Positions 15,605 to 52,287 of a stretch of DNA of 52,287 bases are shown one piece after another. A program made the position numbers and the translations under genes. The first letter of the stretch is position 1; the number at the start of each line of letters is the position of its first letter. Below the pieces are notes generated by a model. That model had not been told where the DNA came from. It made no database searches and saw only the letters and a program-made list of their open reading frames with translations. The stretch lies in IMG/VR virus record IMGVR_UViG_3300025000_000023. One strand, given 5' to 3'. The DNA is from a virus.

Positions 15605-17044
15605 TCACACCATTGCGAATCTTCCATTGGTGAGGTCAGCGACCGTACCTTTGACCGAAACCTTCTTGTCATAGTACGGCATGAGCTTCTCCATACCGAC
15701 ATGACAGCAATCCATGTGCTTCAGGACTGCGTTGCACGTTGCAGAGAACTCCTCAAAGCTCCCACCGTCCCAATTGCACAGTGCATCGAGCTCACGTTGC
15801 TTCTGCTCCTTTTCTTCAGCCTCAAGCTCCGCAATGCGTGCACGGTACTTCGTCACAAGGTCAGCAATTGTATCATAGTCACGCCCGAAGAGTGCATTGC
15901 GCATGAAAGGTGGCGTTGTCCCGCTGTTCCCATTGTCTGCAATGTACACCATGTCTTCCAGCGCATCGGCCATGTCACACAAGTCTGGAAGCTCACGTAC
16001 TACTGTCGTATCAAGACTGAGCCCCTTCATGGTTCTCAGGTATTTCTGCCCGATTTCATACAATCTCGGCACGCTCCTGTCCTTCTGGATAATCATCCGG
16101 CGCAGTGCGCTTTCCTTCTCATTGAAAGTCTCACGCATCTTGTCCATCTCCTGTGCTTGATCATGCTTCTCATGCCGTAATGCATTAAGTTCAAGCTCCA
16201 AGCGATTCACGTCACCCACCGTTCTCTTTGAACGTCTCTTGTCAGTCACCTCGTCCCTCCATATCATCTGAGCATTCTTGTTCATTCCTTCATCCTTCCT
16301 TTGCACGCTTTGTGCATCCAGTATAGTTTGCTTTATGCCATCAAAAGACGGCTTTAGTCCAGTGCCAATCCAGCCTGTAAGAACATGTGGTTCACTGAGT
16401 GTCCCGTTGTACAGTCTAGTGCATTCACCAGTCCTTTTGTTCAAAAGGAAGCCATATAATGAGAATTGTTTGACTCGCTGTGTCTGCGCTTCCAAATTGA
16501 AAATGTCAGGATTCTCCAATGCACACACACGTGCTTCAAAAGCACCAAATTGTATATTGCCTATTCTTTTCAGCATCTCACGGTAGGTGACTGGCTCTAT
16601 TGATGCACATTCATTGAATACACCAGTGAACACGTTCTCCTTCAACATCCTCCACCTCTCAAACTCACCAATCTCCTTGGCATATCTTGAGGCACTGCCT
16701 AGACGTGAATGCACTATGAACCATTGTGCCAAGCTTGGTAAACCAACGTACTCACCATGTGAGCCTAGCCAGCACTCCTTTGAACCTATCCAACACTCAT
16801 GTAGCTTTTTGTATGCCATTGTTCCATTGTACTTGCTTAGAATGCCTAGCACATGCATCTCTTGCTCTGCTGTTACAGTGTTCTCAAACATACCAGTGCT
16901 TCCATGACTCCAATCACCTTCAAGTTCCTTCTTCAAGGCAGACATATCGTGTGACATGTCACGTGCAGCCTCACCACTCTTTTTTATAAAGTCTTGCAAC
17001 GTACGTGCACCATCACAAAGCTCTTTAAACGTACACTGTTTCAT
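15605..17044 (-). CDS. Large hypothetical early protein (479 aa) with central coiled coil
   Basis: AAGGAG lies 5 nt upstream of ATG 17044. I recognised no motif. Confidence 0.7.
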   Translation of the reverse strand: MKQCTFKELCDGARTLQDFIKKSGEAARDMSHDMSALKKELEGDWSHGSTGMFENTVTAEQEMHVLGILSKYNGTMAYKKLHECWIGSKECWLGSHGEYVGLPSLAQWFIVHSRLGSASRYAKEIGEFERWRMLKENVFTGVFNECASIEPVTYREMLKRIGNIQFGAFEARVCALENPDIFNLEAQTQRVKQFSLYGFLLNKRTGECTRLYNGTLSEPHVLTGWIGTGLKPSFDGIKQTILDAQSVQRKDEGMNKNAQMIWRDEVTDKRRSKRTVGDVNRLELELNALRHEKHDQAQEMDKMRETFNEKESALRRMIIQKDRSVPRLYEIGQKYLRTMKGLSLDTTVVRELPDLCDMADALEDMVYIADNGNSGTTPPFMRNALFGRDYDTIADLVTKYRARIAELEAEEKEQKQRELDALCNWDGGSFEEFSATCNAVLKHMDCCHVGMEKLMPYYDKKVSVKGTVADLTNGRFAMV

Positions 17045-17054
17045 AGCATCTCCT

Positions 17055-17306
17055 TCATGAGTCATACAATACATAGCCTCTTCCACACAAGTAGCCATTC
17101 TCGTGTATGCCGTAATCAGTACGCACGAGCTTCCGTGCTTTCAGTTCCTTCATGACTTTTGTAAGCAAACGTCTAGTGTCTTTGTTGACAGGCAACAGAA
17201 GCTCATTTAGGATTGTCTTTTTCGTTGCAATGTAGTTGTCCTCGGAGTACTGTTTCACGATGTTCATTACACTGTCATACTCAATCTTATTCTCAACTAC
17301 CACCAT
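17055..17306 (-). CDS. Small hypothetical protein (winged-helix-like composition)
   Basis: ATG 17306 lies behind a GAGAGGTGAG RBS; the product is 83 aa. Confidence 0.45.
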   Translation of the reverse strand: MVVVENKIEYDSVMNIVKQYSEDNYIATKKTILNELLLPVNKDTRRLLTKVMKELKARKLVRTDYGIHENGYLCGRGYVLYDS

Positions 17307-19424: not shown

Positions 19425-19661
19425 CTATTCGTGCGGATACGGGTCATCATTGACCTCGCATCCAATCTTCTCCAGCAAACTCAAGTGCACACGCTTGCTC
19501 ACACTATCATGAACAATGTGTGCATATCCACCATTGATGCACGCCACACGCCAGACCGTTCCAGCATACCTCACAAACTCGTCAGGTGCAAACTGCTGGT
19601 GCACATACAATTTATTCATGTCGTGCACTCCTGTGTCCTCGTCAATCACGTTGATTTTCAC
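19425..19661 (-). CDS. Hypothetical protein (78 aa, GTG start)
   Basis: GGGAGGG lies 5 nt upstream of the GTG start. Confidence 0.55.
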   Translation of the reverse strand: MKINVIDEDTGVHDMNKLYVHQQFAPDEFVRYAGTVWRVACINGGYAHIVHDSVSKRVHLSLLEKIGCEVNDDPYPHE

Positions 19662-19774
19662 TTTGCCCTCCCTGTGTCATAATTGGTGTGGCACACCCTG
19701 TACGATGCACCACACCCCGAACCATGAGACCACGGATAATCGATGTGATAAGTCACTCATACGAGCAGACTTTA

Positions 19775-19920
19775 TGTGGACGGTAGGATTTGAACCTACA
19801 ATGACAGTGTGTTTCGTGTATCCACGTTTTCAGCTTTCTACAGGGTGTATCCTGCAACGAACAGCCCTACTTTCTGTCTCGCTAACATCGCATAGCGTTT
19901 ACCAATTACGCCACGTCCAC
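19775..19920 (-). tRNA. tRNA-like gene (Asn-GTT-like loop) with about 72 extra nt in the anticodon/variable region
   Basis: The acceptor stem GTGGACG/CGTCCAC is 7 of 7 paired. The D arm is GCGT-AATTGGTAA-ACGC and the T arm is GTAGG-TTCAAAT-CCTAC. The total is 146 nt, against about 75 nt for a normal tRNA. Confidence 0.55.
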
Positions 19921-19926
19921 GATGAA

Positions 19927-20259
19927 CTATCTACTTATAACTTCCATGTCTTCGGAATACAATATTGTAGTGCCTCTGTCTGTCCTCACAACCTTGTCCC
20001 ATCCATTTGATACCATATTGCAGTGCAGAATAGTATCAACTGCAACATCGTTTAGCGTGAGAATCTTTCCATACACAACTTCCTTTCCGACTTGTATCCA
20101 CACGCCTTTCAGTACCTCACCTGATTCCGAAATGAGCTCCTCACGCTCCACAACTCTGTGCGCAAAGCACCCTGATGGAACAGACTCATTCATCGGAATA
20201 CGTTCCGAATCGGAACACATGAAACCAGCATAAAAAACTTCTCTCATTTGTACTTTCAT
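19927..20259 (-). CDS. Hypothetical protein (110 aa)
   Basis: The start is coupled to the upstream stop (ATGA overlap). Confidence 0.6.
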   Translation of the reverse strand: MKVQMREVFYAGFMCSDSERIPMNESVPSGCFAHRVVEREELISESGEVLKGVWIQVGKEVVYGKILTLNDVAVDTILHCNMVSNGWDKVVRTDRGTTILYSEDMEVISR

Positions 20260-24360: not shown

Positions 24361-24488
24361 GTGGCGTGCGTTGTGCATTGTGTATCCTGCATCACATGAT
24401 GTTTGTCATGCTTAGTAGGCTGTGTGTCGTGCATCGCACGCCATTTGATAGTTGTCTGGTGGCGTGCACTGTGTGCCACACGCCATTA
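24361..24488. repeat. Right repeat cluster, inverted relative to the left cluster
   Basis: GTGGCGTGCAC at 24459-24469 is the exact reverse complement of GTGCACGCCAC at 23706-23716. GTGGCGTGCG lies at 24361 and CGTGCATCGCACGCC at 24427. Confidence 0.8.
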
Positions 24489-26030: not shown

Positions 26031-26062
26031 AATTAGTGAATTAGTGAGTAGTGAGTTAGTGA
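26031..26062. repeat. Degenerate 7-8-bp tandem repeat (AATTAGTG x2, AGTAGTG, AGTTAGTG)
   Basis: Read directly. It abuts the 15-bp array and partly overlaps the hairpin ATTCCAT-TAG-ATGGAAT (26017-26033). Confidence 0.8.
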
Positions 26063-26199
26063 GCGAACCATTGCCGTGCGAACCATTGCCGTGCGAACCA
26101 TTGCCGTGCGAACCATTGCCGTGCGAACCATTGCCGTGCGAACCATTGCCGTGCGAACCATTGCCGTGCGAACCATTGCCGTGCGAACCATTGCCGTGC
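26063..26199. repeat. Nine perfect tandem copies of the 15-bp unit gcgaaccattgccgt, plus a partial copy
   Basis: The copies start at 26063, 26078, and so on to 26183, with no mismatch. The array lies between the stop of the 26199 gene and the start of the 25992 gene. Confidence 0.95.
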
Positions 26200-26501
26200 T
26201 AGAATTTGGTGAACTCATAAAGGAATGGACTTTTAAAATTCCATTTTCCGTCTGCCATTTCAATAACGATTGCATTGTAAAAATCCAGTTCATCACCGTC
26301 AACAACCTCGCAAGACACAGACAATCTGTTGCATCTATGCAATGTAAAACATTCTTCCCTTCCGTTGGTGTCAGTGATAAAATAATCACCATTTTTCATC
26401 TTGGTTGACAACTCTCTTGCAACAGCTTTAAGCGTGTTGCGTGCGATTCTACCGTTTGGCTTGATATCAAATATGATATCCATTTTCATTTCAGTCTGCA
26501 T
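26199..26501 (-). CDS. Hypothetical early protein (100 aa)
   Basis: The RBS is AGAGAGGTTAAAAA-ATG. The TAG stop directly abuts the tandem array. Confidence 0.65.
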   Translation of the reverse strand: MQTEMKMDIIFDIKPNGRIARNTLKAVARELSTKMKNGDYFITDTNGREECFTLHRCNRLSVSCEVVDGDELDFYNAIVIEMADGKWNFKSPFLYEFTKF

Positions 26502-51659: not shown

Positions 51660-52287
51660 TGGAAGTATATCAATTCGTGCTCGACAATATCTCAAAGCTT
51701 AGGCAGATGCTGTTTCGCAAGGCTGGTGGACAGATAGGTGACGGTACGAACTATACCGAGTTTGAGTCCACTGGGTTTGCAAAGGCTGTTGGTGATGCAT
51801 GTGCATATGATGATATTGTGATACGTGCTATAAATTTGAGAGCAGGTGCAACTCCACCAGCATATAACACGTTCCAAGACAGTATTCAAGGTGTGGCCTT
51901 TGAGAATCTTGCGTCAGATATAGTGTATGGCTCGTTTGAGATTCCACACACTTACAAGGAAGGCTCTGATTTGGAAGTGCACCTGCACTGGTCTCCGTCT
52001 TCAACGAACACAGGTCGTTGTGACTGGGTGATGAAATACACCTATGCAAACATGAATGGTGTATTTGGTGCTGAGGAGACACTTACATTCCAGCAGGAAG
52101 GTTCAGGTGTGGTAAATAAGAACCAGTATGTGAGTGCGAATGTATTCATTGACGGTACTGCAAAGGCATTGAAGATTGGTGCAGTGTTCTTGTTTGCGCT
52201 CTCTCGTCCTACAGGTGATGCATTCACTGGTGATGCGTTTTTACATGAAGTCGGAGTACACTACCAAAGGGACACACTAGGTAGCCG
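51656..52287 (+). CDS. Hypothetical beta-rich protein; the CDS runs off the window end and finishes at 146 after circularisation (216 aa in total)
   Basis: The ATGATG start overlaps the upstream stop and the frame stays open to the window end. Motifs include FEIPHTYKEGSDLEVHLHWSP and GVHYQRDTLGS. It is absent from the ORF track because there is no in-window stop. Confidence 0.6.
   Translation, partial: MMEVYQFVLDNISKLRQMLFRKAGGQIGDGTNYTEFESTGFAKAVGDACAYDDIVIRAINLRAGATPPAYNTFQDSIQGVAFENLASDIVYGSFEIPHTYKEGSDLEVHLHWSPSSTNTGRCDWVMKYTYANMNGVFGAEETLTFQQEGSGVVNKNQYVSANVFIDGTAKALKIGAVFLFALSRPTGDAFTGDAFLHEVGVHYQRDTLGS
52161..52287. repeat. Terminal direct repeat; identical to 1-127
   Basis: Read directly. 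Confidence 0.95.

Follow-up and report, generated by a model that had tools for sequence, protein, structure and literature searches.

A tRNA-derived, non-decoding RNA with a conserved upper half and a variable lower half between cistrons of a phage genome

We describe an RNA locus on the - strand of a virus genome, the IMG/VR record IMGVR_UViG_3300025000_000023, whose 52,287 nucleotides we analyzed in full and call the window. The locus, at positions 19775 to 19920, encodes a tRNA-derived RNA that does not decode. Comparison with related sequences shows that its upper half (the acceptor stem, the T arm and the D arm with its G18-G19 elbow) is under selection and that its lower half is free to change. 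We hypothesize that tRNA-processing enzymes cut an early polycistronic RNA at this element, a proposal to which we give about an even chance. What is unusual here is the conserved module together with the variable lower half; the processing function is putative, and the clade is rare, since protein searches yielded only four lineages.

Read on the - strand from 19920 to 19775, the sequence is GTGGACG-TG-GCGT-AATTGGTAA-ACGC-T-ATGCG-ATGTTAG-CG-(72 nt)-CAT-T-GTAGG-TTCAAAT-CCTAC-CGTCCAC-A, exactly as given in a first-pass annotation made from the letters alone. The RNA is 146 nt long, with nt 1 at 19920 and nt 146 at 19775. The 5' strand of the acceptor stem, GUGGACG (19914 to 19920; RNA nt 1 to 7), forms seven Watson-Crick pairs with 19776 to 19782, and the 3' strand CGUCCAC plus the discriminator A (19775 to 19782) is followed by UAAAG, with no encoded CCA. 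The D arm GCGU-AAUUGGUAA-ACGC (19895 to 19911; nt 10 to 26) has a 4-bp stem with A14 and G18-G19, and the T arm GUAGG-UUCAAAU-CCUAC (19783 to 19799; nt 122 to 138) has a 5-bp stem; U8 and the discriminator A73 are also present. The first-pass annotation had listed the acceptor stem with 7 of 7 Watson-Crick pairs, the 4-bp D stem with A14 and G18-G19 and the TTCAAAT T loop as ordinary tRNA features, and both direct reading and the Infernal alignment to the Rfam tRNA family RF00005 bear this out. Hence, these tRNA features are present: a 7-bp acceptor with discriminator, a T arm whose loop fits UUCRANY, and a D arm carrying A14 and G18-G19. The RNA has neither a 5-bp anticodon stem with a 7-nt U33 loop at the standard distance from the elbow nor a variable region of 4 to 5 nt or a class II arm of 10 to 24 nt.

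RF00005 matches positions 19775 to 19920 with a score of 41.2 bits, above the cut-off of 29, and with E = 2e-5 over the whole window. This is the sole Rfam match in the window at the gathering cut-off, and the locus is the sole tRNA-related gene in the genome. In the alignment the acceptor, D and T arms are aligned, and an 84-nt local end replaces the 17-nt anticodon arm. The minimum-energy fold of the whole RNA likewise keeps the three arms (z = -2.8). ARAGORN at default settings found no tRNA or tmRNA in the window. At least five independent assemblies (ENA, ANAN16 scaffolds, Logan and JGI; PRJNA268031 and related sample sets) contain exactly this 146-nt sequence, which is therefore not an assembly artefact. 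The interrupted tRNA shape at this site is thus confirmed.

The interruption falls where the anticodon arm should close. The remnant of that arm, AUGCG-AUGUUAG-CG (19880 to 19893; nt 28 to 41), has the 7-nt loop with U33 and GUU that had been noted earlier, and the loop is closed by just 2 contiguous pairs, both by direct reading and in the minimum-energy fold (2 bp), in line with the earlier remark that the 3' strand of the stem is not contiguous. Position 26 and the T stem are 94 to 95 nt apart, compared with 21 to 23 nt in a normal tRNA; the figure of 94 nt given before agrees with our measurement. The variable region can be counted as 1 nt (if CG is joined to CAT), as 4 nt if 73 nt are deleted and two G·U pairs accepted, or as a 76-nt branched arm.

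A tRNA-like gene lies in the equivalent position in all four lineages, namely, the window and three relatives that we call L001, L082 and L089. Phages of the L001 type (IMG/VR, JGI) share with the window most proteins at 92 to 99% identity, and both types occur in JGI sample 3300025154. The L001 RNA (94 nt) has the same acceptor and T arm, and its D stem shows a compensatory change from C11-G24 to U11-A24, but its middle is wholly different, with a hairpin of 6-nt loop (GAGUG-CUGUUA-CACUC) on an extended arm and a surplus of 22 nt. In L082 (108 nt; neighboring protein 45% identical to that of the window; Rfam tRNA score of 29.0 bits), the acceptor stem is a different one, (U)GGGGAG/CUCCCC(U), and the T stem GCAGG/CCUGC carries a U-A to C-G exchange; the arm UGAGU-UAUUAAG-ACUCA is of canonical size but has A33, and about 33 nt of surplus form two hairpins placed between the D arm and this anticodon-type arm. 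The L089 gene (70 nt; neighboring protein 43% identical) sits between homologues of the same two flanking genes and has no surplus; its acceptor is AGUGUGG/CCACACU, its T stem CUUGG/CCGAG, and its arm UUGUA-CAAUAG-UACAA has a 6-nt loop.

In a core alignment of the window, L001 and L082, 95.8% of the stem cells pair and 5 of the 16 pairs are changed on both sides, whereas slid controls reach at most 52%. When L089 is included through a structural alignment made by hand, pairing holds in 61 of the 64 cells, and 11 of the 16 positions show at least two pair types (5 of the 7 positions in the acceptor stem). Each of the four lineages has an intact T-loop and G18-G19 elbow. Because the stems covary and the T-loop and elbow are kept, we conclude that selection maintains the upper half and the D arm. 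G·U pairs in the stems and in the leader helices described below can form only in - strand RNA, which shows the structured molecule to be RNA of this strand.

None of the four lineages has a canonical anticodon arm: the stem is broken in the window, the loop has 6 nt in L001 and L089, and L082 has A33. The distance from position 26 to the T stem amounts to 21, 44, 56 and about 95 nt across the lineages, and the surplus lies at different sites and is of unrelated sequence. Since the anticodon region is defective in every lineage, and differently in each, decoding by the tRNA-like RNA is judged very unlikely. The suggestion of a tRNA-shaped noncoding RNA with a replaced anticodon domain, one of three offered in the first-pass annotation, hence stands, in that four equivalent genes keep their arms by compensatory changes and have no working anticodon arm. 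Another, a decayed tRNA, is right about the origin from a tRNA and the loss of decoding but not about decay, because covariation and a conserved leader indicate maintenance. Decay would have predicted an ordinary uninterrupted tRNA in related phages, and the nearest to this is the 70-nt gene of L089, which has no surplus but a 6-nt anticodon loop.

The element is part of a conserved intercistronic module of the early operon, with the order stop codon, 6 to 30 nt, tRNA-like RNA, hairpin, (leader box and long hairpin), ribosome-binding site and next gene. In the window, 6 nt separate G1 from the upstream stop codon (about 11 to 30 nt in the relatives), there is no terminator-like site near the locus, and a hairpin begins within 1 to 5 nt 3' of the tRNA-like RNA in all four lineages. 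Thus, a non-decoding tRNA shape lies between cistrons of one transcript, as in t-elements and other tRNA punctuation, with the same layout in four lineages. Directly 3' of the element in the window is a structured leader (19662 to 19774, - strand) of hairpin 1, a 37-nt box and hairpin 2 (fold z = -3.8), which is 100% identical in L001. Hairpin 1, AAGUC-U-GCUC-GUAU-GAGU-GACUU (19750 to 19772), has 9 bp in the predicted fold, begins 2 nt after the discriminator A73 and shows a compensatory A-U to C-G change in L082. The 37-nt box GUCUGCUCGUAUGAGUGACUUAUCACAUCGAUUAUCC (19734 to 19770) is identical in L001 and has 2 substitutions in L082. Hairpin 2 (19677 to 19727) is predicted to have about 21 bp, including 13 apical pairs, GGUGUGGUGCAUC/GGUGUGCCACACC, around the loop GUACAG; L082 retains each of the 13 apical pairs, with double changes at many of them. 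It partly covers the ribosome-binding site of a downstream 78-amino-acid open reading frame (ORF), whose Shine-Dalgarno sequence GGGAGGG (19672 to 19666) and GTG start codon (19661 to 19659) together span 19659 to 19672 on the - strand; ribosome-binding sites in the window are of the GGAGG type. The module of L089 is simpler, with tRNA-like RNA, short hairpin, ribosome-binding site and ATG. An Rfam search of the leader including the 37-nt box found no family match at E ≤ 10.

RNase P and RNase Z read the acceptor/T-arm helix and the elbow, not the anticodon arm. Because neither enzyme needs an anticodon arm, cuts at 19920 and after 19775 would be expected at this locus. We propose that host tRNA-maturation enzymes recognize the upper half of the tRNA-like RNA, that RNase P would cut at G1 (19920) and that, as no CCA is encoded, an RNase Z-type 3' endonuclease would cut after A73 (19775). 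The two cuts would split a polycistronic early transcript into an upstream and a downstream mRNA and release a stable, structured RNA of about 146 nt. The downstream mRNA would be left with a hairpin 2 nt from its new 5' end, which may protect it against 5'-end-dependent decay; a 5'-terminal stem-loop stabilizes bacterial mRNA. Hairpin 2 might in addition be of a size suited to RNase III.

Several points weigh against a processing site as the whole explanation. Within the preceding ORF, 44 nt upstream, there is a weak promoter-like site (9 of 12 matches), and the tRNA-like RNA might therefore have a transcription start of its own. A processing signal alone gives no reason for the retention of the well-folded 72-nt domain, whose structure is itself a thermodynamic prediction, nor for the sequence-level conservation of the 37-nt box. 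Moreover, unrelated freshwater phages have the identical acceptor and T-arm sequence, although the search pattern itself required that sequence; the shared arms hint at a sequence-specific recognition beyond the needs of RNase P and RNase Z.

The surplus domain (19803 to 19878, - strand; RNA nt 43 to 118) is predicted to form a three-way junction closed by GACAG/CUGUC. Its hairpin A, GGCU..UGCAGG-AUACAC-CCUGUA..AGCU (19832 to 19866; nt 55 to 89), and hairpin B, CGUG-GAUA-CACG (19815 to 19826; nt 95 to 106), occur in both the minimum-energy and the centroid fold. Folded in isolation, the insert reaches -21.6 kcal/mol (z = -2.5), and 1 of 200 shuffles was as good. All insert helices that had been proposed earlier are thus found in the fold, but the closing GACAG/CTGTC helix and an anticodon stem rebuilt from CG and CAT cannot both form in full, because one C is common to both. 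The junction strands measure 7, 5 and 7 nt. No homologue of the insert was found by exact-word scans of viral contigs or by BLAST against all fetched loci. We conclude that the 72-nt domain is a lineage-specific expansion and not an intron.

A 10-nt stretch of the insert, ACACCCUGUA (19839 to 19848), is the perfect complement of UACAGGGUGU (19693 to 19702, - strand), which covers the loop and 3' stem in leader hairpin 2, with a chance probability roughly estimated at about 0.01; no equivalent pairing is visible by eye in L001 or L082, and the energy of the insert-leader duplex is not significant (p = 0.2 in the window, 0.09 in L001). Both insert hairpins contain GGATACAC (19816 to 19823 and 19845 to 19852). 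As an enriched motif this 8-mer was rejected: it is enriched over dinucleotide shuffles, but its 9 occurrences against 2.6 expected under a third-order Markov model are unexceptional, many 8-mers being as frequent. The insert 12-mer TGCAGGATACAC recurs at 24380 to 24391 in a divergent regulatory region, where it is kept in L001.

Alternatively, the RNA may act in trans as a tRNA mimic, decoy or scaffold, with the upper half providing stability and recognition and the lower half an exchangeable effector or bait for, for example, host nucleases or defense proteins that bind or cut the anticodon or variable region of tRNAs, or for another host protein. That near-identical phages in one aquifer sample have unrelated lower halves (22 nt of surplus in one, 72 nt in the other) looks more like the exchange of a cassette than like drift, and the good fold of the insert (z = -2.5) fits this view, as do a separate set of tRNA-like RNAs of 93 to 115 nt in freshwater contigs, with the same acceptor and T arm and a promoter of their own, and a metagenomic class II tRNA-Tyr(GUA) that shares the T arm and the acceptor's 3' strand. 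Septu and retron-Eco7 cut tRNA-Tyr in its variable loop, and phage tRNA-Tyr counteracts them (PMC13096335). However, the link to tRNA-Tyr is weak, and the anticodon and variable region, which would be needed as bait, is the least conserved part of the RNA. The absence of a surplus in L089 implies that the payload is dispensable, no partner protein is evident among the neighboring genes, which have no family matches, and the phage genome contains no antisense target of the insert above chance (the longest complement, 12 nt, is the same as in shuffles). We therefore regard a role in trans as possible but unlikely, and a still more specific version, in which the tRNA upper half would be a natural scaffold for an exchangeable RNA cassette and the lower domain a decoy or sponge for a host factor (defense nucleases, for instance) under arms-race selection, as doubtful; unrelated lower domains in near-identical phages are what it would predict. 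A functionless, decaying tRNA pseudogene with a random insertion would account for the loss of decoding, for an insert that has no homologue and is not conserved, and for a flank where genes come and go; it would not account for compensatory changes in all three stems across lineages with 43 to 45% identical neighboring proteins, for an intact T-loop and elbow in 4 of 4 lineages, for the kept position, or for a downstream leader that is conserved and covaries. Compact phage genomes seldom retain dead sequence so long, and we consider a pseudogene improbable.

The same comparisons bear on the possibility that the locus is a genuine tRNA-Asn(GUU) with a new small intron of about 72 to 73 nt, splicing of which would yield a 73-nt decoding tRNA. 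In a strict cloverleaf test, which demanded a 5-bp stem, a 7-nt loop and a 3- to 6-nt variable loop after a single deletion, the window gives one marginal solution: removal of 73 nt leaves the stem AUGCG/CGUGU (3 Watson-Crick and 2 G·U pairs), the loop AUGUUAG and the variable loop CAUU. This solution depends on two adjacent G·U pairs as well as on a splice site within the 3' strand of the stem and, with about 24 alternative junctions tried, is by our estimate not beyond chance. L001 has no single-deletion solution (the best has 4 pairs without U33), the surplus differs in position, length and sequence among the lineages, L001 and L082 included, and L089 has the 6-nt loop without any insert. 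ARAGORN with intron search, a check that had been recommended, does report a tRNA, but its calls disagree between orthologues (Phe(GAA) with a 55-nt intron in the window, Val(UAC) with a 15-nt intron in L001), with weak stems and odd insertion points, and this mode accepts 575 of 713 arbitrary deletions; it is non-discriminating, because the arms alone carry the score. A scan for bulge-helix-bulge motifs (two 3-nt bulges with a 4-bp helix between them and a canonical tRNA after excision) gave 4, 1 and 0 motifs in the window, L001 and L082, against shuffle means of 2.3, 0.8 and 1.8, and all products were nonsense. In the Rfam search at E ≤ 10, which had been suggested for group I introns, tmRNA, YrlA and ribozymes, tRNA is the sole match on the locus. 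There is thus no Intron_gpI match, and a group I intron requires about 200 nt or more, far above the 72 nt of surplus; nor is there a match to small ribozymes (hammerhead, twister, pistol, hatchet, HDV-like), and the hammerhead core is absent, with CUGAAAA in place of CUGANGA. The earlier judgment that the surplus fits neither group I nor bulge-helix-bulge introns therefore holds, and the idea of a new small intron fails for lack of a consistent splice product, of a bulge-helix-bulge motif above chance and of a family match; an intron is very improbable. Finally, a DNA-level element (an attachment site, operator or recombination site) might merely resemble a tRNA. Phages commonly integrate at tRNA genes, the window and L001 have leaders that are 100% identical, and the conserved recurrence of TGCAGGATACAC in a regulatory region would suit such an element. 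Against it stand the G·U pairs and compensatory changes, which favor an RNA structure, the presence of both acceptor strands rather than a 3' tRNA fragment alone, the absence of an integrase among the ORFs scanned, and the unexceptional frequency of GGATACAC; we see hardly any chance for it.

Among known RNAs, the element is closest in function, by analogy, to tRNA-like processing signals, namely, plant mitochondrial t-elements, mitochondrial tRNA punctuation and MALAT1/mascRNA, which likewise place a non-decoding tRNA shape between or beside mRNAs. The position 6 nt after a stop codon and the following hairpin fit the t-element or punctuation type. These systems are eukaryotic or organellar, whereas the element of this tailed phage adds a large lineage-specific lower domain and a conserved leader box, and its cleavage is our proposal. 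Compared with a canonical tRNA (RF00005), the RNA is alike in its acceptor, D and T arms, its UUCAAAU loop and a score above the cut-off; it differs in the unclosed anticodon stem, in having 94 nt in place of 21 to 22 and in its rejection by ARAGORN at default settings. The ancestor was probably a class II tRNA. The metagenomic class II tRNA-Tyr(GUA) has an identical T arm and an identical 3' acceptor strand.

The closest likeness among phage objects is to species 1 and species 2 RNAs of T4 (rnaC and rnaD; 139 and 119 nt), which are phage encoded, lie next to tRNA genes and carry the annotation of small stable RNAs; at its end rnaC has a T arm and an acceptor-like stem. The T4 RNAs have no sequence similarity to the window RNA, rnaC scores 17.5 bits on any tRNA-clan model compared with 41.2 bits here, and they sit in a tRNA cluster, whereas the window has its single tRNA-related gene. 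The tRNA-like domain of tmRNA and YrlA likewise keep the acceptor/T-arm module and have other helices in place of the anticodon arm. As a tmRNA, the element was rejected: it has G3-C70 and not G3·U70, ARAGORN -m is negative, and Rfam gives no tmRNA match; the insert frame AVRCRIHPVES* was set aside as a tag candidate, as the alanine identity pair is absent. YrlA has its termini in the Ro-binding stem, and a loop closes its acceptor (in part, PMC4201824), whereas the window RNA has its termini at the acceptor stem; there is also no Rfam match to YrlA, and whereas a YrlA gene would have rsr (Ro) as a neighbor, Pfam recorded no family for any gene within ±3 kb of the locus. tRNA genes interrupted by group I or bulge-helix-bulge introns also have their surplus in the anticodon region, but the window surplus is far below group I size and the orthologues do not have conserved exons.

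Phage tRNA genes are usually interpreted as tools for codon usage or anti-defense. A tRNA fold that has long been kept without decoding at a fixed intercistronic site points instead to an organelle-like punctuation of mRNA by tRNA-processing enzymes in a phage. We know of no description of such punctuation in tailed phages, and our literature search found no description of a non-decoding phage tRNA-like class. The lineages also indicate that the lower half of a tRNA can accept 20 to 70 nt of structured RNA at several sites, which bears on the engineering of tRNA scaffolds and on the origin of tRNA-like RNAs such as tmRNA or Y RNA. For annotation, such genes call for caution, because ARAGORN misses them, settings that tolerate introns yield spurious isotypes, and in Rfam they come out as plain tRNA. 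If the RNA were indeed a scaffold for exchangeable cassettes, it would form, together with the freshwater-phage and Enterococcaceae tRNA-like leaders described at the end, a broad class of tRNA-scaffolded RNAs not described so far.

The window and L001 have non-homologous flanking genes, and the block from AGATAGTTCAT to the leader (arms plus 105 nt of leader) is almost identical in the two save for the lower half. AGATAGTTCAT, which lies upstream of G1, was dismissed as a promoter motif, being not repeated in the genome and absent from L082. The 78-amino-acid ORF (19425 to 19661) corresponds to the C-terminal half of a 156-amino-acid gene of L001 (7296 to 7766), so that in the window the leader is fused mid-gene; L001 has an extra gene of about 270 amino acids there, and the window has an extra 110-amino-acid gene upstream. 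Judged from these gene contents, the tRNA-like locus is a hotspot of gene gain and loss. A + strand ORF overlapping the locus (19516 to 20010; 164 amino acids) was rejected as a gene, because the 52-nt length difference to L001 breaks the frame and the flanks are non-homologous.

With bases 1 to 127 repeated exactly at 52161 to 52287, the window is a phage genome that is complete, about 52.16 kb in size and either circularly closed or terminally redundant. The - strand carries most of the genes between about 600 and 26900, and the + strand carries the structural genes, which begin at about 27000; the content includes a large terminase, a family A DNA polymerase, an AEP-type primase, SNF2 and Dda-like helicases, ThyX and an HNH endonuclease. 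Searches of about 30 ORFs against Pfam and PHROGs found replication and nucleotide-metabolism genes only and no RNA enzymes. Contigs of the window type are present in assemblies of the groundwater project PRJNA268031 and related sample sets, and INPHARED contains neither a nucleotide relative of the window nor a nucleotide match to the locus. A 497-amino-acid ORF (15605 to 17098, - strand), whose L001 counterpart is 81% identical, matches nothing in Pfam or PHROGs and has just 2 homologues among 5.8 billion proteins. Between the divergent gene blocks, at 26033 to 26229, about 10 tandem copies of the 15-nt unit GCGAACCATTGCCGT are preceded by TTAGTGA-type repeats, which looks like an iteron array or replication origin. 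The 8-mer AGGTCGAG/CTCGACCT, with 10 occurrences genome-wide against 0.76 expected under a third-order Markov model, is the most over-represented 8-mer outside the tandem repeat.

Two further sets of tRNA-like RNAs came to light. In viral and metagenome contigs from freshwater (L006, L009, L012, L025 to L029, L041 and L044), which share no proteins with the window, the RNAs of 93 to 115 nt have the same acceptor and T arm as the window RNA, an encoded CCA, a covarying long variable arm and a tetraloop or long extension in place of the anticodon loop. They are preceded by a consensus promoter, TTGACA-17-TATAAT, whose -10 box ends 6 nt before G1, so that a start at G1 would be expected, and followed 23 to 32 nt downstream by a signal-peptide protein of about 100 to 110 amino acids with an ACSFW motif and no Pfam match. 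The other set, in Enterococcus and Vagococcus chromosomes (L049 to L074) and many metagenome contigs (e.g., L007), is an unannotated element of about 82 to 93 nt (133 nt in one genome), often in at least two copies per genome. It has the acceptor GUGGAUG/CGUCCAC, the same T arm as the window RNA and two small hairpins replacing the D and anticodon arms, and it scores 24.9 to 27.6 bits with the Rfam tRNA model, below the cut-off. This element often lies upstream of ORFs for small hydrophobic peptides or lipoproteins.

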